This document shows, one piece after another, positions 2,646-22,241 of a DNA stretch of 24,121 bases. The translations under genes and the position numbers were made by a program. Numbering within the stretch: the stretch's first letter is position 1; each line of letters starts with the position of its first letter. The notes beneath the pieces are model-generated. The model searched no databases and had not been told where the DNA came from. It worked only from the letters and a program-made list of their open reading frames with translations. This stretch comes from a virus. The DNA is taken from the UHGV virus genome UHGV-0136745. The stretch is one strand, 5' to 3'.

Positions 2646-3038
2646 CTAACTATAATAGTTTGCTATTAGGTCGTCAACCTGTTTGAACGAGCCAACGACA
2701 AAAACATTTGCGCCACGTTTACGCATCCGCTCATGTTCCCGTAGCTGGTGAGGGTCTGGCTTCGTGTTTTCGTCTTTCTTTACCTCGACGAACCAGATGA
2801 TGCCGTCGGGGAGAATTACCAGCAGGTCGGGGGCGCCTATTCTATTTTCGTACGACAACTTACGAACGAGGCCCCCGATGGCCTCGAATCGCTCTTTTGC
2901 GTATTTCTGAATCTTGCCTTCCGGGGTCATTAACCGATTATCCTGCTGAAAATAGCCGCGCCCAGTAATAAAGCTACAAGTACAGCGATTATAGTTATCA
3001 TAATACGCACCCCTCGCGTTTAGTATGTTCAATCCCAC
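2646..3038 (-). CDS. VRR-NUC domain nuclease (PD-(D/E)XK fold)
   Basis: C-terminal region GAPDLLVILPDGIIWFVEVKKDENTKPDPHQLREHERM matches the VRR-NUC signature (D...E.K plus downstream Q). Start uncertain: GTG at 3038 or internal ATG at 2930 (MTPEGKIQKY). Confidence 0.6.
   Translation of the reverse strand: MGLNILNARGAYYDNYNRCTCSFITGRGYFQQDNRLMTPEGKIQKYAKERFEAIGGLVRKLSYENRIGAPDLLVILPDGIIWFVEVKKDENTKPDPHQLREHERMRKRGANVFVVGSFKQVDDLIANYYS
2649..2677 (-). promoter_or_regulatory. sigma70-like promoter (reverse strand TTGACG-17 nt-TATAGT) with embedded palindrome AATAG-N4-CTATT
   Basis: Reverse complement of 2649..2677 reads TTGACGacctaatagcaaactatTATAGT. Same architecture as the sites at 6152..6180 and 8998..9026. 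Lies inside the last codons of the VRR-NUC gene. Confidence 0.45.
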
Positions 3039-3083
3039 AGCGCGGACAGATTCGGCAGTCTTCTTCGTAGAACCAGTAAATTT

Positions 3084-3215
3084 TCATTCCAGCACCCACA
3101 GATAAATTGCGATTAACATACGCAATACGGCGACCATCATGCCGTACTGGCCCTCGTGACAGTAGACACCGGCGGCGAATCCCGCCAGTGCTGTGACAAT
3201 CAGTTTACTTAGCAT
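3084..3215 (-). CDS. possible small hydrophobic membrane protein (43 aa)
   Basis: Reverse-strand ATG at 3215..3213 gives MLSKLIVTALAGFAAGVYCHEGQYGMMVAVLRMLIAIYLWVLE, stop at 3086..3084. Overlaps the polymerase 3' end by 11 nt. Below ORF-track cutoff. SD weak. Confidence 0.3.
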   Translation of the reverse strand: MLSKLIVTALAGFAAGVYCHEGQYGMMVAVLRMLIAIYLWVLE

Positions 3216-5406
3216 AACGTTTCATCTCCGCGCCTTCTGCGACTAAAGGGAACCCCTCGGCCCACTCAGGCAATGCGCACATTAATTTTTCCAGCTCAGC
3301 CACCGTGTACTCCGGTGTATCCGGGGTTTCGCATACCAGTTCATCGTGCACAGAAAGCACGATAGGATACCCACCACCCTCAACATTAACCATTGCATAC
3401 GCAAGTAAATCACGGCACAGCGCCTGAACAATGTTTTCACAGGCCTTGCCGCCGTGTGTGTACAGGGTGGTCCATTGGCGGGTTAACTGGTTTTCACCCT
3501 GGTATTTGATTCGCACATTTGTGTTTACCCGTCCGTCTTCGTCGGTTTCTTTTGTCACACTAACGCCGATTCCTGGATACGATAGAATCCGAGCCGACGG
3601 CAACTCCATACACAACCACCAACCGGGAACTTTCCTGCCGGACGAATCGGTTTCTACTGTTCTCCAGATTCGGATGGCGCGTTCACCATTCTTGCGCAGA
3701 TGCGCCCCTGCCCAAAACTCACGACCCGGATTTCTTACAGCGGCTAAAATTCCATCTTTAAGGTCGCGCCAGAAAGCTACTGTTTCCGGGTGTGACTCAC
3801 GCCACATACGCTTGATCGCGTCGCATGTACGCCAGACTTTCTTATCAAGAATATATGAAGGTCTGTCATCTTTTTCACCGGGACGCGGGGGGCGCTTGGC
3901 TTCCTGAATACGTGCCCACTCGTAACCCCGTGCCGTAGCGGCCCATATATGGTCAGGGAAAGTCCCGTCCATTGTTTTTGCCATCTCAATAAGGTCAAGA
4001 CCTAGGTTTTTAGCAAACGTAACGAACGCTCCTACGCCCCCCTCATAGCCTAGGCCAAGCTCGCAAGCCTTGCCTATCTGTCTGATTTCCTTGAAGTTTT
4101 TCTTAATGTCATCTGGGTCCATGCCGAACATCTTACCTGCGGTTACACAGTAAATATCCAGTCCGGCGCGGAACGTATCGAGCGCGGTTTCTTCTCCTGC
4201 CAGCCATGCCAACCCGCGGCCTTCGACGTTAGAGTAATCGGCGACGACAAACTTATGTCCTGCTTCCGGGATAATGCAGCTACGAACCGTCGATGCCGTT
4301 AGTTTGGCTACGTCAAAACGGCGATGCGCGCGCCCCTTAAGTAGCGCCGCAATTCCTTTATCCAGTTCATCGTCATGATAGTACCCGCGCGCCAGGTTCT
4401 GTGGCTGGAAGCCTTTACCCGCCCATCGCAGAGTACGTTTCGCCCCGCCGTACTGCAAGCAACCACGGCGGCGGTCGTCAGAAGAACGGCCCAACAGCAG
4501 GGGGTTATATTTCGTAGACGCAGTTGACGCCGCGCCCAGGCGCATTTCTATAATCGTGCGCGCATCGTCCGGTAAATCCTCGTCCGCCAGCAGGTCATGA
4601 AGTGTTGACTTCTGCGCATTGTGAATGCGGTGAGCGGGGGCCAGTTCACGCAGAATCGGCAGGAAGTCTTTGCCGGTTAGCGAGCCGCCGTATTTACGCT
4701 GAGCTTCTTCCTGCAACTGCGCCTTGTGTTTCTCTACGGCTTCAATCGCGGATTCCGCCAGAGCGACATCAACCTTAAACCCACGGTCGTTGATTAACTG
4801 GTCCAGTTCCAGAACCCGGTCCTCGAACTCGGAGTTACCCCAACGCGGCAGCTTGTGGAATACTTCACGCATCGCTGTTATGTCGCTCACGGCGTACTTG
4901 ATGAACAACGCCCACTCGTCCGGGTGCGTTTCGGCAGTGTAGCGACGGATTTTATAGTTCTTCGGCGTAGGTTTAGAGAAACGCTGAATCAGCGCCTTGC
5001 CTCGTTTGTCTTTTGCATTGTCCGCAGATACCCCAAGCACTTCACACAACGCATCGAGTGACCCCGGCAGCGCGTGGCGAAACGCCCAAATCATCGTATC
5101 AATGGTGTTGCTGACCGGAATATCGAAGTCCCAGCAGTGCTTCATGATGAGACGGTCGAACATTGAGCCGTTGTGCCAGACCATCTTGATACGGCTGTTC
5201 GGCTTAACCAGGCGGCGCAGTGCACGGTGCAAATCGCCTGGCATGTCGCTGCCGTCTGTGCAATCCCATACCTGAACAGGTTCATCGTCGAAGGCGTAGG
5301 TGCAGATAAGCACTCCGGTAGTCGGGTGTTCGGCGTAGGCATAGGAGCCGACTTTCTTCAAATCGGCTTCGGAGAAGGTTTCAAAGTCCAAGAACAGGTA
5401 ACTCAT
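3205..5406 (-). CDS. DNA polymerase, family A (Pol I-like) with 3'-5' proofreading exonuclease domain
   Basis: 733 aa. Exo I motif FLDFETFS near N-terminus; polymerase motif A VVADYSNVEGRGLAWLAGE, motif B RQIGKACELGLGYEGG (K...YG), motif C LSVHDELV. Confidence 0.9.
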   Translation of the reverse strand: MSYLFLDFETFSEADLKKVGSYAYAEHPTTGVLICTYAFDDEPVQVWDCTDGSDMPGDLHRALRRLVKPNSRIKMVWHNGSMFDRLIMKHCWDFDIPVSNTIDTMIWAFRHALPGSLDALCEVLGVSADNAKDKRGKALIQRFSKPTPKNYKIRRYTAETHPDEWALFIKYAVSDITAMREVFHKLPRWGNSEFEDRVLELDQLINDRGFKVDVALAESAIEAVEKHKAQLQEEAQRKYGGSLTGKDFLPILRELAPAHRIHNAQKSTLHDLLADEDLPDDARTIIEMRLGAASTASTKYNPLLLGRSSDDRRRGCLQYGGAKRTLRWAGKGFQPQNLARGYYHDDELDKGIAALLKGRAHRRFDVAKLTASTVRSCIIPEAGHKFVVADYSNVEGRGLAWLAGEETALDTFRAGLDIYCVTAGKMFGMDPDDIKKNFKEIRQIGKACELGLGYEGGVGAFVTFAKNLGLDLIEMAKTMDGTFPDHIWAATARGYEWARIQEAKRPPRPGEKDDRPSYILDKKVWRTCDAIKRMWRESHPETVAFWRDLKDGILAAVRNPGREFWAGAHLRKNGERAIRIWRTVETDSSGRKVPGWWLCMELPSARILSYPGIGVSVTKETDEDGRVNTNVRIKYQGENQLTRQWTTLYTHGGKACENIVQALCRDLLAYAMVNVEGGGYPIVLSVHDELVCETPDTPEYTVAELEKLMCALPEWAEGFPLVAEGAEMKRYAK

Positions 5407-8307: not shown

Positions 8308-8808
8308 TTATTCTTCTTCGAAATACTTGTTCTTAATCGCCGTCAGGCGTTCCAGGTATTCGGCCAGGTCTTCGTCTTTAATCGCGGCAATCTTCATCTT
8401 CTTACCGGTGAACTCTTCCAGCAGTTCATCGGAGTCGTCACACGCGGCATCGCTCGGGCCTTCGTTAATCGCATCGTCGATAGCCTGAATCTGGTCACGC
8501 AGAGACTGGTAATCGACTTCTTCTTTATCCTCTTCCGGCTCTGGCGCAGGATCCTCTACCTTAGCTTTACGTTGCTTGCGCTTCGGTTTCTCTTCTTCCG
8601 CCGGTTTAGTGTCGATAACTTCTTCACCTTCTACCGGGATTTCTTTTGTTACTTCTTCGGCGCACTCGGATACCTCTTCTTTGGCATACACTACCGTCTC
8701 TACTTCTAAAGGCGCTGCAACTTGTGCTGGCTGTTTCGCACTGTTAGCTGCAATCAGTTCATGTGCAACTACGAAACGTTCCAGTAATTTCAGAAATTGT
8801 TCTAACAT
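8308..8808 (-). CDS. highly acidic early protein (166 aa), function unknown
   Basis: Strongly Glu/Asp-rich (e.g. VEDPAPEPEEDKEEVDYQ, SDAACDDSDELLEEF, ends YFEEE). AGGAG SD 8 nt upstream of ATG 8808. First sizeable gene downstream of the leftward promoter at 8998..9026. Confidence 0.6.
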   Translation of the reverse strand: MLEQFLKLLERFVVAHELIAANSAKQPAQVAAPLEVETVVYAKEEVSECAEEVTKEIPVEGEEVIDTKPAEEEKPKRKQRKAKVEDPAPEPEEDKEEVDYQSLRDQIQAIDDAINEGPSDAACDDSDELLEEFTGKKMKIAAIKDEDLAEYLERLTAIKNKYFEEE

Positions 8809-8851
8809 TATTTGTTCTCCTGTTTATAAGTGTAAGTTTTAGATAAATATA

Positions 8852-8965
8852 TCAATTACGTCTATTTATGTAGTCTGATACCGTGTCCTTAACTAGCACA
8901 CATACTACATACATCAGGATTGCTATCGACGCTAGTAATACTATTGTTATGCTATCTGTGTGCAT
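8852..8965 (-). CDS. possible small membrane peptide (37 aa), unannotated in ORF track
   Basis: Reverse-strand ATG at 8965..8963 preceded by GAGAGGAGAG SD. Translation MHTDSITIVLLASIAILMYVVCVLVKDTVSDYINRRN has one hydrophobic helix-length stretch. Lies in the leader between promoter and acidic-protein gene. Confidence 0.35.
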   Translation of the reverse strand: MHTDSITIVLLASIAILMYVVCVLVKDTVSDYINRRN

Positions 8966-8997
8966 TTTGTTTCTCTCCTCTCGTTTGGTATGAGCTA

Positions 8998-9026
8998 ACT
9001 ATAATAGCAAACTATTCACCTGTCAA
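8998..9026 (-). promoter_or_regulatory. sigma70-like leftward promoter (TTGACA-17 nt-TATAGT) with embedded palindrome AATAG-N4-CTATT
   Basis: Reverse complement reads TTGACAggtgaatagtttgctatTATAGT: consensus -35, 17-nt spacer, near-consensus -10. Divergent from the HTH gene promoter. Confidence 0.55.
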
Positions 9027-9029
9027 CGC

Positions 9030-9058
9030 TTTTTATCAAAAAATTAATATGCTACTAT
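9030..9058 (+). promoter_or_regulatory. putative rightward promoter for HTH gene (-10 TACTAT, weak AT-rich -35)
   Basis: gCTACTATTCAcaTATC at 9051..9067 matches the -10 and downstream part of the 12546 and 13921 promoters; upstream is AT-rich (TTTTTA) rather than a good -35. Confidence 0.35.
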
Positions 9059-9089
9059 TCACATATCAATCAGCTAAGGAGTAACCATT

Positions 9090-9314
9090 ATGCAACAGTC
9101 ACCAATTGGCGCTCGTATGGAGCAACGCCGTAAAGAGCTTGGCCTGTCCCAGCGCCGTTTAGCTACTCTGGTCGGCGTTTCCCAGGGGGCGATTAACCAA
9201 CTTGCCCTCGGCGTAACTCAAGATGTCCGTCGCACCACTCTGTTTAAACTTGCGGAAGTTCTCGAAGTTAAGCCAGAGTGGTTAGCTTTCGGTGACCAGA
9301 CTCAAGGGGCTTAA
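9090..9314 (+). CDS. HTH-XRE family transcriptional regulator (Cro/CI-like)
   Basis: 74 aa; ELGLSQRRLATLVGVSQGAINQLALG is a classic XRE helix-turn-helix. AAGGAG SD upstream. Only rightward gene in this region. Confidence 0.85.
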   Translation: MQQSPIGARMEQRRKELGLSQRRLATLVGVSQGAINQLALGVTQDVRRTTLFKLAEVLEVKPEWLAFGDQTQGA

Positions 9315-9329
9315 CGCCCCTTTCTTTTT
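9305..9329 (+). terminator. intrinsic terminator after HTH gene
   Basis: AGGGGC-ttaac-GCCCCT stem-loop overlapping the stop codon, followed by TTTCTTTTT. Confidence 0.55.
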
Positions 9330-9331
9330 AC

Positions 9332-11596
9332 CTATTCCAAATCCTCCTCAGTCACTACCAGCATTTCGTTCGGTTCGTACACGGTCTTCGGTATCTTGCT
9401 GTCGTTAATCCTGGTGTTTAGCCTGTATCGCCCAGGTATTATCTGATTGTTCTCGTCAGTACCGGGTACAAGATATCCTGCTTCAACCATTTTCTTAATC
9501 TTACCGCGCTCTATAGCTTCCTTAGAGTTGAACGCCTTTGCATTAGGGTCAGACTGCGCAAGCTTATTAGCTGCGGCTACTGTGATACCTTCGTTGCCGT
9601 TGTAGGTTCCCTCCGCCAGTTCAAACGCAGCCAGTATCGTGGCTTCTGAACTGTTTACTGCGTTCTCTACGGTTTTTCGTACATTTTCTTTACCTTCCTT
9701 TGTCAGCCCTTCTTCCTTCTCTTTCTCTTCGTCAGTCTTGAATGGCTCAAAGCCCCACGGCATCAACACGAGCGCCTTATGTGGCTCCGGTAGGTCGAGG
9801 TTTACGATTGTGCCGTATTCCTCGGTGCTGCCGATGAATTCTACCGCGCGGTACGCCTTCGGAGGAGGGGCTTCACGGAACTGTACTGACTCCAGCACCA
9901 TGCCAATCGTTTTCTGTTGCGGCCCGTGCTTAAATTTAGTGTGTGACACGTTAATCTGGCGGTCGGTTGCACGTTCAATTGTCAGTTCCACATCGACACC
10001 CGCATACAGCGCACCACTGCCACGGGCTTTCTTTCCACCTTTTGGCGTGTGATGGACCACACCAACGGCGGCTTTAGTCGCGTCGCGGACTTCTTTCAGT
10101 ATGGCTATAACTTTACCCATACCGATTGCCGTTGATGAACTATTCTCGTCGAACTTATCAATCGTCAGGGCCAGCGTCTGGTTAAGGGTGTCGAACGCAA
10201 CCATGCCAATTGGCTCATCGCCAGCAGTTTCGCGCATCAGCTTAATCAGGCTTTTCAGTTTGCCGACGTCGCCCATATCGATAACGTGGATGTAGTTCTT
10301 CCCTTCCTCTCCGTACTTAGCCGCGAGCGCATCAATACGTGTGCGCGTAGCTGCACCGCCCTCACCATCGATATAAAAGTGATGGCAGCGTTGGGTGTCC
10401 GCACCTGCAAACCGATATCCGGCAGCGCTCAGGTACATCATGCCAAGGGTGTAGAAAGACTTATATGTGCCGGACTCACCGACAATATCCCAGATACAGT
10501 CCGACGGCATATAGCCCTCGACGACGAAATCGGCCTTTACCGGTTCCGGTAAATCGTCTTCCTCAGAGTCGTCGTCTTCCAGGTCGTCAAGGCTACATTC
10601 GACCGTTTCACGTGCACCCCAGCCGATGGCCTCAGCGACTTCACTGAACGGCAGCCCTGTCGCTTCGCAAGCGTATTTCCACACCTCTTTCGGCGACATC
10701 CCCTCTGTTGCCGTTAGGTCGGTGTCGTGAATCATGGTTACGTTAGGCGCAGCGTAGCCCTCGCGCGGGAAGCACAGCAGGAAATCATCCGGGCGCGGTG
10801 TCGGGTCACTGTAGTTCTCGGCGTGCTCAGGCGTCGCTGGCATCTTCAGACCACGTGGTGTAATGACACCGCCATACTCGAATGCCAGTGCTTCGAACGC
10901 GTCCGTAAACGCTGTGCGCAGTTCTTCCGGTATCTGGTAGTCGGATGCGCTGCTTACCTCGTAATCCGGGACTCCTTCCAGCAGACGGTCAGGGTCAATC
11001 ATGCCATTTCGGCGAGACCAGACGACCTCAGAGTTAACTGGCGGCAGGTACATCGGCTGGGACAGGGTAAACCCGCTGCGGTCAGCACCCATGCCTTTAA
11101 AGAAGTGCTCCAGCAGCCCGTGGCGGACGCGGATGATATCACCACCCTCTACCGGACGCGCCAGCGGCATGACGACACGGAAACGCGGTGATTCGTCGGT
11201 GTGTGATGCCGTGGTGTAAAGGCACATTGCTACACGGCTGCGCTTAACCAGACGCACAGCTTCCTGATACTCTTCTGGCGTCGCGCTGTCAAAATCCAGA
11301 TAAGCCAGTGACGATTTACTTACTGACGCGTCACAGCGGTAGAAGAAGCCCCGTCTCGCCTGTTTAAACTCGCCCGTTTCCGGGTCTTTCACGGTGCTGT
11401 GTGTTGAGCCGCACGCGGCAGTAATGTACCCCGGCGCGGTCTTTGGGTTAATCCCGTCACGAACGGCGTCAAGTGGCTGGATTAACTCTTTAAGGTCGTC
11501 CAGTGTTGCCGTGTGAGTGGTTCTGACGTTTATATCCTTTTTCTCCGCCCGCGCGTTGCGGCGAGACCATGAATAGGATAAAATTACATCGGACAT
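9332..11596 (-). CDS. DNA primase/helicase (primase-polymerase N-terminal region plus RecA-fold helicase domain)
   Basis: 754 aa. Walker A-like VGESGTYKSF, later VVHHTPKGGKKARGSGALYAGVDVEL (RecA/DnaB-like helicase motifs), acidic linker (DDLEDDDSEEDD). Size and position fit phage primase-helicase fusions. Confidence 0.8.
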   Translation of the reverse strand: MSDVILSYSWSRRNARAEKKDINVRTTHTATLDDLKELIQPLDAVRDGINPKTAPGYITAACGSTHSTVKDPETGEFKQARRGFFYRCDASVSKSSLAYLDFDSATPEEYQEAVRLVKRSRVAMCLYTTASHTDESPRFRVVMPLARPVEGGDIIRVRHGLLEHFFKGMGADRSGFTLSQPMYLPPVNSEVVWSRRNGMIDPDRLLEGVPDYEVSSASDYQIPEELRTAFTDAFEALAFEYGGVITPRGLKMPATPEHAENYSDPTPRPDDFLLCFPREGYAAPNVTMIHDTDLTATEGMSPKEVWKYACEATGLPFSEVAEAIGWGARETVECSLDDLEDDDSEEDDLPEPVKADFVVEGYMPSDCIWDIVGESGTYKSFYTLGMMYLSAAGYRFAGADTQRCHHFYIDGEGGAATRTRIDALAAKYGEEGKNYIHVIDMGDVGKLKSLIKLMRETAGDEPIGMVAFDTLNQTLALTIDKFDENSSSTAIGMGKVIAILKEVRDATKAAVGVVHHTPKGGKKARGSGALYAGVDVELTIERATDRQINVSHTKFKHGPQQKTIGMVLESVQFREAPPPKAYRAVEFIGSTEEYGTIVNLDLPEPHKALVLMPWGFEPFKTDEEKEKEEGLTKEGKENVRKTVENAVNSSEATILAAFELAEGTYNGNEGITVAAANKLAQSDPNAKAFNSKEAIERGKIKKMVEAGYLVPGTDENNQIIPGRYRLNTRINDSKIPKTVYEPNEMLVVTEEDLE

Positions 11597-11654
11597 GTGT
11601 ATATTCCTTCAGCAAGTAATTTGGCCTCGGCGTTCACCGCGTCGGGGCTTTCTT

Positions 11655-11945
11655 TTAACGTTTAGCCAGACATTCCATTAAATGTGAATATTTTCTGTAA
11701 TAGCAAGGAACTAAATCACACCCAAAATAATGATAAACATAATCCAAGTGGTCGGTAACATCTATAGCGGCCGACATTGTGCTAAGACGGCGAAGGCTAA
11801 TCAACTGTAATTCTTCCGTAATGCAAAATGGCTCATACGTATCAAGTTTGCAAGAAACGTTAAAACACAGAGCATAGCCGTCTTGTGCGGAGTGGACCAG
11901 AAATGCACTGTCGTTCTCTTTATCGTGAAAAATTACACCTTTCAT
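11655..11945 (-). CDS. hypothetical protein (96 aa)
   Basis: ORF in operon orientation; start overlaps stop of upstream AlpA-like gene (ATGA). No recognisable motif. Confidence 0.45.
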   Translation of the reverse strand: MKGVIFHDKENDSAFLVHSAQDGYALCFNVSCKLDTYEPFCITEELQLISLRRLSTMSAAIDVTDHLDYVYHYFGCDLVPCYYRKYSHLMECLAKR

Positions 11946-12777: not shown

Positions 12778-12980
12778 TGGAAGAATTATTTGAAGAACTG
12801 AAACACCATGAACTGGAAGAAGTGCATTTCCGGGTAAACAGATACGAAGTTGTTATTTTAGGTGGGGTAACAATTATCACAGCTTCTGCGGGAAGAATGC
12901 TTCATAGTTTACGTTCCATACGAACGACATCGAATCATGATGCCAGTGCCGACGACTCTGAGGGAGGTTGCCGTGAATAA
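12774..12980 (+). CDS. hypothetical protein (68 aa)
   Basis: Start overlaps upstream stop (GTGATGG). Acidic N-terminus. Confidence 0.5.
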   Translation: MMEELFEELKHHELEEVHFRVNRYEVVILGGVTIITASAGRMLHSLRSIRTTSNHDASADDSEGGCRE

Positions 12981-13028
12981 TTACACGTTTATTTTAATTG
13001 TCAGCGCCGTTTGTGTGGTGCACGCGTT

Positions 13029-13232
13029 ATGGGGGCTGGTGTGGGGATTCGAATAATCGACGTTGATTATGTTCTTCCGCCGGGTTATGGCGACCATTCA
13101 CTGCGCTACTTTGGCGTCTCCGTCGGAGATGAGTTCGAGGTTATAACTTATAACGATTACGGGTGCACCGTTGAGCATTGCGGGGAAGAACTGTACGTGC
13201 GTCGACGTGAATATGTGATTCTGGAGGGCTAA
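13029..13232 (+). CDS. hypothetical protein (about 67 aa)
   Basis: Track ORF 13011..13232 begins at TTG; first in-frame ATG is 13029. Start ambiguous; overlaps a candidate 27-aa hydrophobic ORF at 12973..13056. Confidence 0.4.
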   Translation: MGAGVGIRIIDVDYVLPPGYGDHSLRYFGVSVGDEFEVITYNDYGCTVEHCGEELYVRRREYVILEG

Positions 13233-15853: not shown

Positions 15854-16127
15854 GTTATTCTGGTTTGGCGGTATGCTCGCAATCGGGGGCACATCGCTGT
15901 TTAATGTATACCACCCCAGCGTAGATGATGGCCTGTTTGGGCGTGTGCTGTATATCCTCACTGCTATTGTTTGCGCCGCCGGTTGCATCCACCTGCTACA
16001 GGGCAGCATGTCACCGACGCTGCCGGAAACATTAATCACCCTGGTAGCGCTGCGACAGATTCGCCAGTCGTGGCTGCATTACCAGTCGAAAGGAGGGCAT
16101 AAGCGTGTCTCGAAACATTTCAGATAA
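15846..16127 (+). CDS. second holin/antiholin-like protein, two predicted TM segments
   Basis: From internal ATG 15846 (overlaps upstream stop): MTELFWFGGMLAIGGTSLF..., LYILTAIVCAAGCIHLL, basic C-terminal tail. Track ORF starts at 15753. Confidence 0.5.
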   Translation: MTELFWFGGMLAIGGTSLFNVYHPSVDDGLFGRVLYILTAIVCAAGCIHLLQGSMSPTLPETLITLVALRQIRQSWLHYQSKGGHKRVSKHFR

Positions 16128-16590
16128 TGGCTTGCATTTCTGCGCCGAGTTCGAAGGCTTCCGTGGAACTGCGTACCGCGCTACGCCGGATGAGAAGTAC
16201 CTGACTATAGGCTACGGGCATTATGGCGCAGACGTTAAGCCTGGTCAGACTATCACGCCGGGGCAAGGCCTCCTGCTACTCAATCGCGATATGGCTAAGG
16301 CGGTAGCCGCCGTTGATGCCGCGGCGCATCACTCACTGACGCAGGGCCAGTTCGACGCAGTATGCGACCTGGTGTTTAACGCAGGTGCTGGCGTTATCGC
16401 GGCTACTACCGGTACTGGTAAGGCCCTGCGCGCAGGTGACATTGCTACGCTGCGGGCTAAGCTGGCGCTGTTTATCAACCAGAACGGCAAACCGTTACTC
16501 GGCCTGCGCCGCCGTACAGCCGGGCGTCTGGCATTGTTCGACGGTAAACCGTGGCAAGAGGCGGTTGCTATCGGGAGGGCGGTAAAATGA
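16105..16590 (+). CDS. endolysin, GH24 lysozyme (T4 e / lambda R-like fold)
   Basis: N-terminal GLHFCAEFEGFRGTAYRATPDEKYLTIGYGH carries the Glu...Asp...Thr catalytic arrangement of phage-type lysozymes. GTG start with AAAGGAGGG SD. No TM segment, so holin-dependent. Confidence 0.85.
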   Translation: MSRNISDNGLHFCAEFEGFRGTAYRATPDEKYLTIGYGHYGADVKPGQTITPGQGLLLLNRDMAKAVAAVDAAAHHSLTQGQFDAVCDLVFNAGAGVIAATTGTGKALRAGDIATLRAKLALFINQNGKPLLGLRRRTAGRLALFDGKPWQEAVAIGRAVK

Positions 16591-18244: not shown

Positions 18245-18331
18245 GAGTATGAGCCTTGAAGTGGTTATAAGTTTAGTTGGTCTTAGTTATTTTATCAGGT
18301 TGACCGTCGGCTTTCTGTGGGGTAGATACTG

Positions 18332-18502
18332 ATGTTCGATAATATTGACGCAGCAATCGAAGAAGCAATCTGGCGTCGCCACAACGGCGAGCAACAACGA
18401 CACTTCTGCCTCGTGCAGCGCGGTAACATGATTGCCGTGGTGCAGGACAGAGATAATAAATACCCAAATGCGATGTGGACGACGAGGAATTTCTTAGGAT
18501 GA
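18332..18502 (+). CDS. hypothetical small protein (56 aa), unannotated in ORF track
   Basis: ATG 18332; translation MFDNIDAAIEEAIWRRHNGEQQRHFCLVQRGNMIAVVQDRDNKYPNAMWTTRNFLG. Preferred over antisense ORFs 18273..18651. Confidence 0.4.
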   Translation: MFDNIDAAIEEAIWRRHNGEQQRHFCLVQRGNMIAVVQDRDNKYPNAMWTTRNFLG

Positions 18503-19500: not shown

Positions 19501-20747
19501 GTATTCAGCTATCCGCCCCTCAGGCGCTGTTCCTTAACTGCGAGAACAAATACAAGGCATATGTTGGTGGTTTCGGCAGTGGCAAGACATTTGTTGGCTG
19601 TCTTGACCTGCTTACGTTTATGCTTAAACACCCCGGAACTCGCCTTGGCTACTTCGGTCCGACATACCCGGCTATCCGTGACATATTCTACCCAACGTTT
19701 GAGGAAGCGGCTAACCTCCTGGGCCTTGATGTGCTGGTTAAATCCGGCGACAAAGAGGTAGTGGTTACGCGGGGTAAGACGGTAATCGGCACCGTAATCT
19801 GCCGCTCGATGGATAACCCTGGCTCTATCGTCGGTTTCAAAATAGCCGCAGCGGTCGTGGATGAGCTGGACGTACTGAGCCGTGAGAAAGCGGAACTGGC
19901 ATGGAACAAAATCGTTGCCCGTATGCGTCTGGTTATCCCTGGTGTGGTGAACCACATCTCCGTTACCACGACGCCGGAGGGGTTCAAGTTCGTCTATGCC
20001 AAGTTCAAAGAGAACCCGACGCCGAGTTACTCGATGGTGCAGGCCTCGACTCATGAGAACGCCAGGTTCCTGCCGCCCGATTACATCAGCTCACTGACCG
20101 AGACATACCCGGCCCAGTTGATTAACGCGTACCTGAATGGTGAGTTCGTCAACCTGACCTCCGGCAGCGTGTATTACGCCTATGACCGCCGTAAGCACCG
20201 CAGCAAAGAGACAATTCAACATGGCGACACGCTGTACATCGGGCAGGACTTCAACGTTACGAAGAACGCAAGCGCCGTGTATGTGCAACGTAAAGACGGA
20301 TGGCACGCGGTAGCAGAACTGAAAGGCCTGTTCGATACGCCCGATACCGTGAGAGTTATTACTGAGAAGTGGAAGTCGCAAGGCCACCGCATCGTCGTGT
20401 ACCCGGACGCCAGCGGAAAGAACCGCAAGACCAACTCGGCGTCCATCTCTGACATCGCCTTACTACAGCAAGCCGGGTTCGATGTGCGGGCTAAATCCGC
20501 CAACCCGCCAGTTAAAGACCGTGTTTTAGCCGTGAATACTGCGCTGGAAAAAGGTAAGCTGTGGGTTAACGACCACTTATGCCCTGAGATAGCCAAGACG
20601 CTGGAGCAACAGGCGTACGACGACAACGGCGAGCCAGCTAAAGACGGCATCATCGACCATATGGCGGATGCGCTTGGCTATCCTGTAGTTTACGAGATGC
20701 CGGTGGTTAAACCTGTAATCAACATCCCGGTGACTTTCGCACTTTAA
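19497..20747 (+). CDS. terminase large subunit
   Basis: 416 aa; N-terminal Walker A YVGGFGSGKTFVG, followed by a nuclease-domain-sized C-terminal half; GAGGTAGAGGA SD. Confidence 0.85.
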   Translation: MSIQLSAPQALFLNCENKYKAYVGGFGSGKTFVGCLDLLTFMLKHPGTRLGYFGPTYPAIRDIFYPTFEEAANLLGLDVLVKSGDKEVVVTRGKTVIGTVICRSMDNPGSIVGFKIAAAVVDELDVLSREKAELAWNKIVARMRLVIPGVVNHISVTTTPEGFKFVYAKFKENPTPSYSMVQASTHENARFLPPDYISSLTETYPAQLINAYLNGEFVNLTSGSVYYAYDRRKHRSKETIQHGDTLYIGQDFNVTKNASAVYVQRKDGWHAVAELKGLFDTPDTVRVITEKWKSQGHRIVVYPDASGKNRKTNSASISDIALLQQAGFDVRAKSANPPVKDRVLAVNTALEKGKLWVNDHLCPEIAKTLEQQAYDDNGEPAKDGIIDHMADALGYPVVYEMPVVKPVINIPVTFAL

Positions 20748-20759
20748 GAGGATTATTCA

Positions 20760-22241
20760 ATGTTAACTATGAACGGTCAAAATCAGGGTGTTAAGACAAA
20801 ACACCGGGAATGGCTGCACCACTTTGATAAATGGCAGAAGGTGCGCCATGCGCTGGAAGGCGACCTTATCCGTTACCTGCGAAACGTCGGGAAGAACGAG
20901 CCGGACCCAACTTACGCTACCCAGCGCCAGGAAGAATATGAGAACGGAGCTATCTGCTACAACTTCACCAAGCGCACCCTATCTGGCATGGTCGGCTCAG
21001 TGATGCGCAAAGATCCTGAGCAGATTATTCCGCGTGAACTGGAATACCTGTTGCGTAATGCGGATGGCTCGGGTGTCGGCCTGTGGCAGCACGCGCAGGA
21101 TACGCTGATGGAAATTGACTCGGTAGGCCGTGGCGGATTACTGGTGGATGCGCCGGAGACAGCCGCAGCAACGGCAGCCGAACAGAACGCAGGATTATTA
21201 AACCCGGTCATCGCATTCTATACCGCAGAGAACATCATCAACTGGCGGCTCACTCGCGTGGGTTCTGTTAACCGCGTTACGATGGTAGTGCTGCGTGAGG
21301 TATGGGAATATTCAGAACCCGGTGCCGAGTTTGAAACAAAGTTTGGTGAACAATACCGCGTCCTCGACCTGATTGACGGGCGCTACCGCCAGCGCATATA
21401 CCGCTTCGATGCAGAGGGTGGTGCGCAGGGCGACGTAAAAGAAATCTTCCCGGAACTGGGCGAACAGTTGCGCGGTAAAATCCCGTTCACGTTTATTGGC
21501 GCGAGTAATAACGACGCGACTGTTGATGATGCACCTTTGTTGCCGTTGGCTGAATTAAATATCGGACATTTTCGCAACAGCGCGGATAATGAGGAATCAA
21601 GTTTCGTTGTAGGGCAGCCTACCTTGTTCATTGCCCCCGGCGAGAATATGAGCATGGAGCAGTGGCAAGAGGCCAACCCTCACGGCGTGCGCATGGGTTC
21701 ACGCTCAGGGCACAATATCGGCTACGGCGGCAACGCGTTTCTGGTACAGGCGGGAGAGAATAACCTCGCCAAGCAGAACATGCTGGACAAAGAGAATCAG
21801 GCTATCCAGATTGGCGCGCAGCTTATCACGCCTACGCAGCAAATCACCGCGGAATCTGCCCGCCTGCAACGCGGCGCTGACACGTCCGTAATGGCGACTA
21901 TCGCGCGTAACGTAAGCATGGCGTACACCGAAGCGTTGCGCTGGGTAGCTGCGATGCTGGGCCTGCGCGAAGGCACGGAGATTGAGTTTAAGCTGAACAT
22001 GGAGTTCTTCCTGCAACCAATGACAGCGCAAGATCGCGCACAGTGGATGGCGGACATTAACGCTGGTTTACTGCCGGCGACTGCTTACTACGCCGCGTTG
22101 CGTAAGGCTGGGGTAACTGACTGGACCGACGAGGAGATTATGACGGCGATTGAGGATGCACCTGTACCATTAGGTGCTGTTACTCAGGTAACTGGAGAAA
22201 TTCCGCAGTCGGCGCAACAGCAGGACACCACTCAGCAATAA
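20760..22241 (+). CDS. portal protein
   Basis: 493 aa ORF directly after terminase large subunit with AAGAGGA SD; size and position typical of portal proteins. Assignment by synteny; no motif confirmed. Confidence 0.7.
   Translation: MLTMNGQNQGVKTKHREWLHHFDKWQKVRHALEGDLIRYLRNVGKNEPDPTYATQRQEEYENGAICYNFTKRTLSGMVGSVMRKDPEQIIPRELEYLLRNADGSGVGLWQHAQDTLMEIDSVGRGGLLVDAPETAAATAAEQNAGLLNPVIAFYTAENIINWRLTRVGSVNRVTMVVLREVWEYSEPGAEFETKFGEQYRVLDLIDGRYRQRIYRFDAEGGAQGDVKEIFPELGEQLRGKIPFTFIGASNNDATVDDAPLLPLAELNIGHFRNSADNEESSFVVGQPTLFIAPGENMSMEQWQEANPHGVRMGSRSGHNIGYGGNAFLVQAGENNLAKQNMLDKENQAIQIGAQLITPTQQITAESARLQRGADTSVMATIARNVSMAYTEALRWVAAMLGLREGTEIEFKLNMEFFLQPMTAQDRAQWMADINAGLLPATAYYAALRKAGVTDWTDEEIMTAIEDAPVPLGAVTQVTGEIPQSAQQQDTTQQ

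Follow-up and report, generated by a model that had tools for sequence, protein, structure and literature searches.

A small hydrophobic open reading frame in a variable first-cistron slot of a Kagunavirus-like phage

Results

The locus and its relatives

The DNA analysed here, which we call the window, is a stretch of 24,121 bp that constitutes a complete metagenome contig (ENA ERZ1749178, NODE_648, assembled with SPAdes at a coverage of 3.37x). Helicase, DNA polymerase, exonuclease and helicase-primase are encoded leftward; the genes for lysis, terminase and head are read rightward together with numerous small ones. The window has matches in more than 500 phage records of Escherichia and Salmonella, the best of them being that of Escherichia phage CR01 (87% identity over 70% of the window). 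Judged from its sequence, the phage behind the window is a virulent Kagunavirus-like siphophage of the Guernseyvirinae and an E. coli phage. At a coverage of 3.37x single-base errors are possible anywhere in the contig, small open reading frames (ORFs) included. The annotation of the CR01 record (OR061068) splits the genes for DNA polymerase, helicase-primase and terminase into two or three fragments each (3115..5314, 9663..11919 and 20288..21536), which suggests frameshift errors in that record; the window copies of all three are intact.

The ORF that we set out to follow, p37, encodes 37 amino acids and lies between the gene of a 166-aa acidic protein and the divergently transcribed gene of a Cro/C1-type HTH regulator (Table 1). 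An earlier note on this DNA had reported a 37-aa ORF with a GAGGAG Shine-Dalgarno (SD) sequence, and both are present; the ORF is on the minus strand, which had not been given, and the SD ends 9 nt before its ATG. Since a promoter of the sigma-70 type, TTGACA-17-TATAGT, stands directly upstream (9026..8998 on the minus strand), p37 is the first cistron of the leftward transcript. This promoter is part of a divergent control region that is 83-89% identical in more than 160 phage records. The control region also contains two copies of a direct repeat, ACTATTCAC (extended forms ACTATTCACCTGTCAA and ACTATTCACATATCAA), the first of which abuts the -35 hexamer of the leftward promoter; the repeats are candidate operators for the HTH regulator.

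Table 1. Coordinates of the features discussed in the text
Feature	Position in window	Strand	Remarks
p23, 23-aa transmembrane ORF MITIIAVLVALLLGAAIFSRIIG	2930..3001	-	Not in the list of the earlier note
29-aa Cys-rich ORF MKIYWFYEEDCRICPRCGIEHTKREGCVL	2998..3087	-	phrog_38225, E 2.5e-22
p43, 43-aa ORF with two hydrophobic segments	3084..3215	-	Overlaps the 3' end of the DNA polymerase gene by 11 nt; phrog_10404
166-aa acidic protein	8308..8808	-	phrog_3127; labelled '13.88 kDa late protein' in relatives
Lineage-specific insertion, 157 bp	8809..8965	-	p37, 43-nt spacer and new SD; from alignment with EM1 and Bas72
Second SD, AGGAG	8817..8821	-	Within AAACAGGAGAACAAATAATG; predicted to serve the displaced 166-aa gene
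p37, 37-aa ORF MHTDSITIVLLASIAILMYVVCVLVKDTVSDYINRRN	8852..8965	-	One predicted transmembrane helix (about residues 6-25), polar net-positive C-terminal tail
Divergent control region	8966..9089		Holds the leftward promoter
SD, GAGGAG	8975..8980	-	Upstream of the p37 ATG
Sigma-70-type promoter	8998..9026	-	Leftward; near-consensus (11/12) in a consensus scan
Direct repeat ACTATTCAC	9011..9019 and 9054..9062
Cro/C1-type HTH regulator	9090..9314	+	PF01381, E 3e-13
Terminator-like hairpin	9304..9322		Follows the HTH regulator gene
p27a, 27-aa hydrophobic ORF	12973..13056	+	GTG start, GGGAGG SD; kept at 23-27 aa in relatives
Counterpart of the lysin gene	16105..16590		By position, of the lysin annotated in CR01
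p27b, 27-aa hydrophobic ORF	18249..18332	+	Stop overlaps the ATG of the next gene

A 157-bp insertion at the start of the leftward operon

Alignment of the window with phages EM1 and Bas72 revealed that p37 is carried by an insertion of 157 bp which these phages lack: in both of them the conserved control region runs straight into the ATG of the 166-aa gene. The site of insertion is exact: on one side of it stand the conserved SD and ATG with which the operon begins, and on the other the 166-aa gene, for which this ATG is the start codon in most relatives. The same SD and ATG (8975..8980 region) start p37 in the window and the 166-aa gene in relatives without an insert, so that this gene is the second cistron here and the first one there. 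Because it is placed directly at the conserved SD and ATG, the insert inherits the near-consensus promoter, a 5' UTR of about 25 nt and the GAGGAG sequence with its 9-nt spacer. The AGGAG at the other end of the insert appears to restore translation of the displaced 166-aa gene. The earlier note had placed p37 in the leader of the early leftward operon; p37 does head this operon, as its first cistron, but it is cargo of an insertion that most relatives lack rather than an ORF within a conserved leader.

The insert is compositionally foreign, as expected of acquired cargo. Its GC content is 0.32 versus 0.50 for the window, and its GC3 is 0.38 versus 0.57. Four of the five Ile codons of p37 are ATA, versus 17% ATA in the long genes, and the ORF contains two CTA codons and one AGA codon as well; ATA, CTA and AGA are codons that E. 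coli seldom uses. In a blastn comparison with 50,697 phage records, the 19-nt right junction of the insert exactly matches many Jerseyvirus and Kagunavirus records, and the rest of the insert DNA has no match there. Internal duplication as the origin of the insert was ruled out, as the window contains no second copy of it. A reading of the insert as a non-coding RNA was likewise rejected: there is no Rfam family in the insert region, and folding of the leader gave no significant structure (z = -0.23 versus shuffles). Consensus scans of 8700-9400 detected neither a terminator-like site on the minus strand nor an antisense promoter on the plus strand, and the only promoter-like site inside the insert (9/12) overlaps the start of the next gene.

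A variable first-cistron slot

We surveyed the position of the insertion in 28 readable relatives, a sample biased by the fact that the IMG/VR loci in it were fetched by an exact 27-mer from the control region. In 19 of them the slot is empty, with 124-125 nt between the two divergent start codons, and in the other 9 it bears an ORF, in each case starting at the same position. The cargoes other than p37 are 49 to 85 aa long and belong to five ORF families that are unrelated to p37, have no known function and include no hydrophobic member: a 49-aa family (Snoke gp049 and IMG/VR loci L004 and L022), a 58-aa ORF (L020), a 75-aa Cys-rich family (phrog_32657, in CR01 and as Bas73_0050 in Bas73), an 85-aa ORF (phrog_34383, SETP13 gp44) and a different 75-aa ORF (Shemara gp53). 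Among the surveyed relatives no slot contains a non-coding insert, and p37 is both the shortest cargo and the only hydrophobic one. Descent of p37 from one of the known cargoes was considered and rejected, tblastn of p37 against all fetched loci having returned noise only.

Despite the unrelated cargo, a right boundary of the form AAACAGGAGA..AAAT(A)ATG is common to the window, CR01, Bas73, Snoke, L004, L020 and L022. The left boundary GGAGAGAAACAAAATG and the right boundary GGAGAACAAATAATG are alike, the right motif being similar to the SD-ATG sequence on the left. This arrangement suggests precise loss or exchange of cassettes by short-homology recombination at the boundaries. Two of the occupied slots deviate from it: in SETP13 the boundary motif is contained in the last part of the cargo ORF (...AACAGGAGAACAAATAATG), whose stop overlaps the next ATG, and in Shemara the spacer differs from the shared right boundary. 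The motif AAACAGGAGA(A/G)..AAAT(A)ATG, found at 8809..8826 of the window, recurs in L003, L004, L020, L022, L024 and L025. The last codons of p37 (8855..8872 on the minus strand; ATA AAT AGA CGT AAT, encoding INRRN) loosely resemble the cassette boundary ATAAACAGGAGAAC of CR01 (INRRN, L003 9061..9075), a likeness that may be fortuitous or may go back to an earlier copy of the boundary.

Properties of p37 and searches for homologs

To judge p37 against chance, the insert of 157 nt was shuffled 20,000 times with its dinucleotides preserved and the ATG held fixed. In these shuffles an ORF of at least 37 codons occurred with a probability of 0.034 and a 19-aa hydropathy of at least 2.0 with a probability of 0.001, and the maximum 19-aa Kyte-Doolittle hydropathy of p37 itself, 2.9, was reached in none of the 20,000. 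The length and hydrophobicity of p37 are no by-product of base composition. AlphaFold2, run on the single sequence, returned one helix spanning residues 2-36 with a pLDDT of 94, and the model is compatible with a single-pass small membrane protein, in which a predicted hydrophobic helix of about 20 residues lies between polar or charged flanks. On its own contig the ORF had not been called as a gene.

We could not find a homolog of p37 in the 50,697 INPHARED phage records (tblastn and blastn), among 1.84 billion representative proteins (phmmer), by exact look-ups, or in E. coli genomes (blastn) and plasmids (tblastn). Nor did IMG/VR, JGI metagenomes or GTDB genomes contain a match to any of three degenerate-codon patterns (MYVVCVLVKD, MHTDSITIVLL and (K)DTVSDYINR(RN)), which demand exact matching over 9-12 residues. 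Of the family collections, Pfam, PHROGs, NCBIfam and PADLOC gave no match; in Pfam and NCBIfam nothing was found at E <= 10, toxin and holin families included. The tblastn searches were run with a low-complexity filter that may mask the p37 helix, and protein collections seldom include ORFs as short as this one. In all collections searched, p37 thus appears as an orphan. Since no relative or homolog carries it, conservation of its frame offers no evidence on selection either way. The literature on Kagunavirus small membrane proteins and on Guernseyvirinae early promoters contained nothing usable that we could find, and the BASEL paper does not discuss this locus.

The other small ORFs

The earlier note had grouped p37 with three other hydrophobic small ORFs preceded by plausible ribosome-binding sites, here called p43, p27a and p27b (Table 1). 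All four exist as it described them and encode hydrophobic helices, and as a set they exceed chance: in the whole window, 4 SD-preceded ORFs of 20-59 codons with a hydrophobic stretch were seen versus 0.3 +/- 0.6 expected (maximum 2) from 100 shuffles, in a scan whose SD rule missed the ORF at 18249 and picked up the extra ORF at 2930..3001. The note had also called them unannotated. This holds for the two 27-aa ORFs (p27b in CR01, NTEC3 and Bas72; p27a in CR01, RP180 and Ro145c2YLVW), but p43 is a phrog_10404 member, and both CR01 and NTEC3 have it annotated immediately after the DNA polymerase gene.

The same note had named conservation of the reading frames in related phages as a check on these peptides, and such conservation is evident for p43 and p27b, with retention of the ORF for p27a. 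p43 is 81-88% identical in 8 loci, falls in a 25-member 90% cluster and matches phrog_10404 over its full length (E 2.5e-29, residues 1-43 of 43); in HSE2 tblastn located it just past the annotated polymerase CDS. This ORF is real and represents an already known family without an assigned function. p27b, found in 44 phage records, shares 93% identity with its counterparts in CR01 and NTEC3 and 65-69% with those in two IMG/VR phages. Change in it is mostly synonymous, as 10 of its 15 differences fall at the third codon position and the codon changes comprise 9 synonymous versus 2 non-synonymous ones; in one relative it stands behind a different upstream gene, with its own SD. The case for p27b as an overlooked gene is, on this pattern of change, well supported. 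p27b is also a clean presence/absence cassette: HSE2 (L029 17290..17292) and L017 (13721..13723) join the flanking genes directly, with 86 nt missing (window 18246..18331).

For p27a, an in-frame ATG at 12937 would extend the ORF upstream to 39 aa and into the preceding gene, and the GTG with the GGGAGG SD is the more plausible start. DNA of p27a occurs in 42 phage records, and the ORF is kept in six other loci, among which its length changes in frame by +1 and -2 codons; in one relative a deletion shifts the frame. In L020 it starts with ATG in a different upstream context. The variable sites are spread flatly over the three codon positions (6/4/5), without bias. Because of this flat pattern, the claim that p27a is coding rests on retention of the ORF across relatives, the in-frame indels and the ATG-start copy in L020. 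p27a is probably a gene, the alternative being conservation of a DNA or RNA element. In most cases the p27a stop and the ATG of the next gene overlap (ATGA); this ATGA is mutated in the window, and therefore p27a is 3 aa longer here. The gene that follows (13011..13232, plus strand) most likely starts at GTG 13041, giving 63 aa, rather than at the mechanically listed TTG 13011; GTG 13041 aligns with the ATG that overlaps the p27a stop in RP180/L017, L020 and L023.

Between the DNA polymerase and VRR-NUC genes (2928..3215, minus strand), four small ORFs, with p43, the 29-aa Cys-rich ORF and p23 among them, are chained by ATGA or TAATG stop-start overlaps, and the VRR-NUC gene starts at ATG 2930..2928, not at the mechanically listed GTG 3038. 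At the position of p23, HSE2 has a 25-aa transmembrane peptide and NTEC3 an annotated 50-aa two-helix protein (phrog_14925). Searches of PHROGs with p37, p27a, p27b and p23 gave no match. Reading these ORFs as small membrane peptides, as the earlier note did, seems reasonable; conservation supports this reading for p43 and p27b, and ORF retention supports it for p27a.

Discussion

The evidence for p37 as a gene is architectural and not evolutionary. An ORF with a marked helix propensity forms the cargo of a precisely placed cassette, which has inherited its expression signals from the operon. Initiation of its translation is near-certain, because the promoter, UTR, SD and ATG are those that drive the first gene in relatives. 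p37 is probably a real accessory gene, and we consider it fairly probable that it is a recently acquired and early-expressed accessory inner-membrane peptide, housed in a variable slot and acting on a component of the host envelope. From this arrangement we infer translation, membrane insertion and whatever activity the peptide may have. Cassettes would be gained, swapped and lost by recombination at the short boundary sequences, and p37 would be translated from the first minutes of infection. The peptide would enter the inner membrane as one helix (about residues 6-25), and by the positive-inside rule its N-terminus (the short MHTDS end) would face out and its KDTVSDYINRRN tail the cytoplasm. 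Its target there would be a protein or process of the host envelope, and it might exclude competing phages or take part in host takeover, for example by inhibiting cell division or cell-wall synthesis. Small membrane peptides are recurrent and conserved in this phage group, as p43, p27a, p27b and p23 exemplify.

The insert could instead be non-functional filler, either the remainder of a larger, decaying accessory gene or useless AT-rich DNA taken up by illegitimate recombination, whose frame is translated only by virtue of the operon SD and ATG and whose peptide has no selected function. We regard this as doubtful, and as the alternative to be taken most seriously. It would account for p37 being a singleton with no homolog in any collection searched, for its atypical codon usage, rich in rare codons, and for its being the shortest cargo of the slot; moreover, the chance of an open frame of this length (0.034) is not negligible. 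It would not account for a hydrophobic stretch that none of the 20,000 shuffles reached, nor for the orderly layout of the peptide, in which a short polar N-terminus leads into a helix of about 20 residues with a charged tail behind it. The other inserts of the slot are all clean ORFs followed by an SD, and phage genomes are, as a general argument, under streamlining and packaging pressure, both of which speak against filler. It is quite improbable that p37 acts in cis as an upstream ORF, a leader peptide of which only the act of translation would matter, since coupling, mRNA stability or attenuation would adjust expression of the replication operon downstream. Such a role would suit a short first cistron that follows the promoter directly, with 43 nt between it and the next gene. 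However, the minus strand of 8700-9400 has no terminator or attenuator hairpin in our scan, the leader has no significant RNA structure, the downstream gene has a good SD of its own, the operon of most relatives works without any such ORF, and the extreme hydrophobicity of p37 would be left unexplained.

In size and layout, with one helix and a charged C-terminal tail, p37 resembles toxins of the Fst/Ldr/TisB class and the smallest holins, a likeness accompanied by no family match. A type I toxin-like or holin/antiholin-like peptide could damage the membrane for an abortive, addiction-like or lysis-timing use, and we consider this very improbable for p37. No toxin or holin family of NCBIfam or Pfam matches it, and the consensus scan revealed no antisense promoter-like site on the plus strand of 8700-9400. 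A role in lysis timing in particular is unlikely because the ORF belongs to the early replication operon and not to a lysis cassette, the lysin counterpart being about 7 kb away, and a membrane-damaging toxin made constitutively and early would hurt the phage's own replication. It is extremely improbable that the insertion arose through faulty assembly or sequencing of a metagenome contig, even at the 3.4x coverage of NODE_648, which does leave a sequencing error altering the p37 ORF possible. Both junctions are biologically precise, the left one being the conserved SD and ATG and the right one AAACAGGAGAACAAATAATG, which occupies the same place in other phages, and a chimeric join is disfavoured since such exact junctions (8808/8809 and 8965/8966) would not arise from it.

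Our preferred reading of p37, as an accessory inner-membrane peptide, may be extended to the slot as a whole. The slot would then be a dedicated 'first-expressed' cargo site of the Guernseyvirinae, in which tiny effectors are swapped via RBS-like boundaries, and p37 a new, homolog-free inner-membrane effector, possibly born de novo from AT-rich sequence, that for example excludes phages, counters a membrane-associated defence or arrests division. This extension is speculative, and we hold it to be unlikely in its full form.

Taken by itself, p37 is the sort of thing one expects in a variable phage slot, an orphan transmembrane peptide from a well-known class, the small accessory phage membrane peptides. 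Several small phage proteins that have been studied are potent modulators of the host. Gene callers systematically miss such proteins: p37 was not called, and the two conserved 27-aa ORFs are unannotated in the relatives checked. p27a, p27b, p23 and the 29-aa ORF deserve to be added to Kagunavirus gene lists. The slot, in which the expression signals are fixed and the mini-genes swappable, is more useful to follow than p37 alone. It provides a compact experimental system: behind a constant promoter, SD and ATG, its naturally occurring alleles comprise the empty one and at least six unrelated mini-genes, and the phage group includes culturable members of the BASEL collection (Bas70-76).

Variable slots with short conserved boundary sequences, known as morons or accessory cassettes, have been described for lambdoid phages. 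The p37 slot resembles them: it is filled in some close relatives and empty in others, always at one exact site, the cargoes found in it are unrelated, its boundaries are short and conserved, and the p37 insert has a foreign base composition. A classical moron, however, has its own promoter and terminator, whereas the p37 cassette has neither, using the promoter and SD of the operon and bringing only an SD for the next gene; at 157 bp it is also far smaller. Superinfection-exclusion membrane proteins, such as T4 Imm and Sp, HK97 gp15 and P22 SieA, are early, accessory inner-membrane proteins that vary between relatives. p37 would share with them, putatively, a phage-encoded product in the inner membrane as well as early expression and an accessory, variable nature, but with roughly 80 aa or more those proteins exceed p37 in size, and they have no sequence relationship to it. 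Within the Guernseyvirinae, p43 belongs to phrog_10404, the 29-aa ORF to phrog_38225 and the 50-aa NTEC3 counterpart of p23 to phrog_14925, all of them small-protein families without an assigned function, and by virtue of these memberships tiny membrane peptides are normal gene content of the group.

Small phage proteins have long been under-appreciated, as a recent review points out (PMC11323111). The closest functional parallel among the systems compared here is offered by Gp11 of phage PhiNM1, a 53-aa protein with two predicted transmembrane helices that was recovered in a screen of early genes and blocks division of S. aureus via MurG and DivIC (PMC11237401). Gp11 differs from p37 in host and phage lineage, has no sequence similarity to it, and has two predicted helices where p37 has one. 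Both, however, are very small products of an early operon, membrane-embedded in the case of Gp11 and predicted to be so in the case of p37, and by this analogy a function of the Gp11 type would suit the position of p37 in the operon and its predicted topology.
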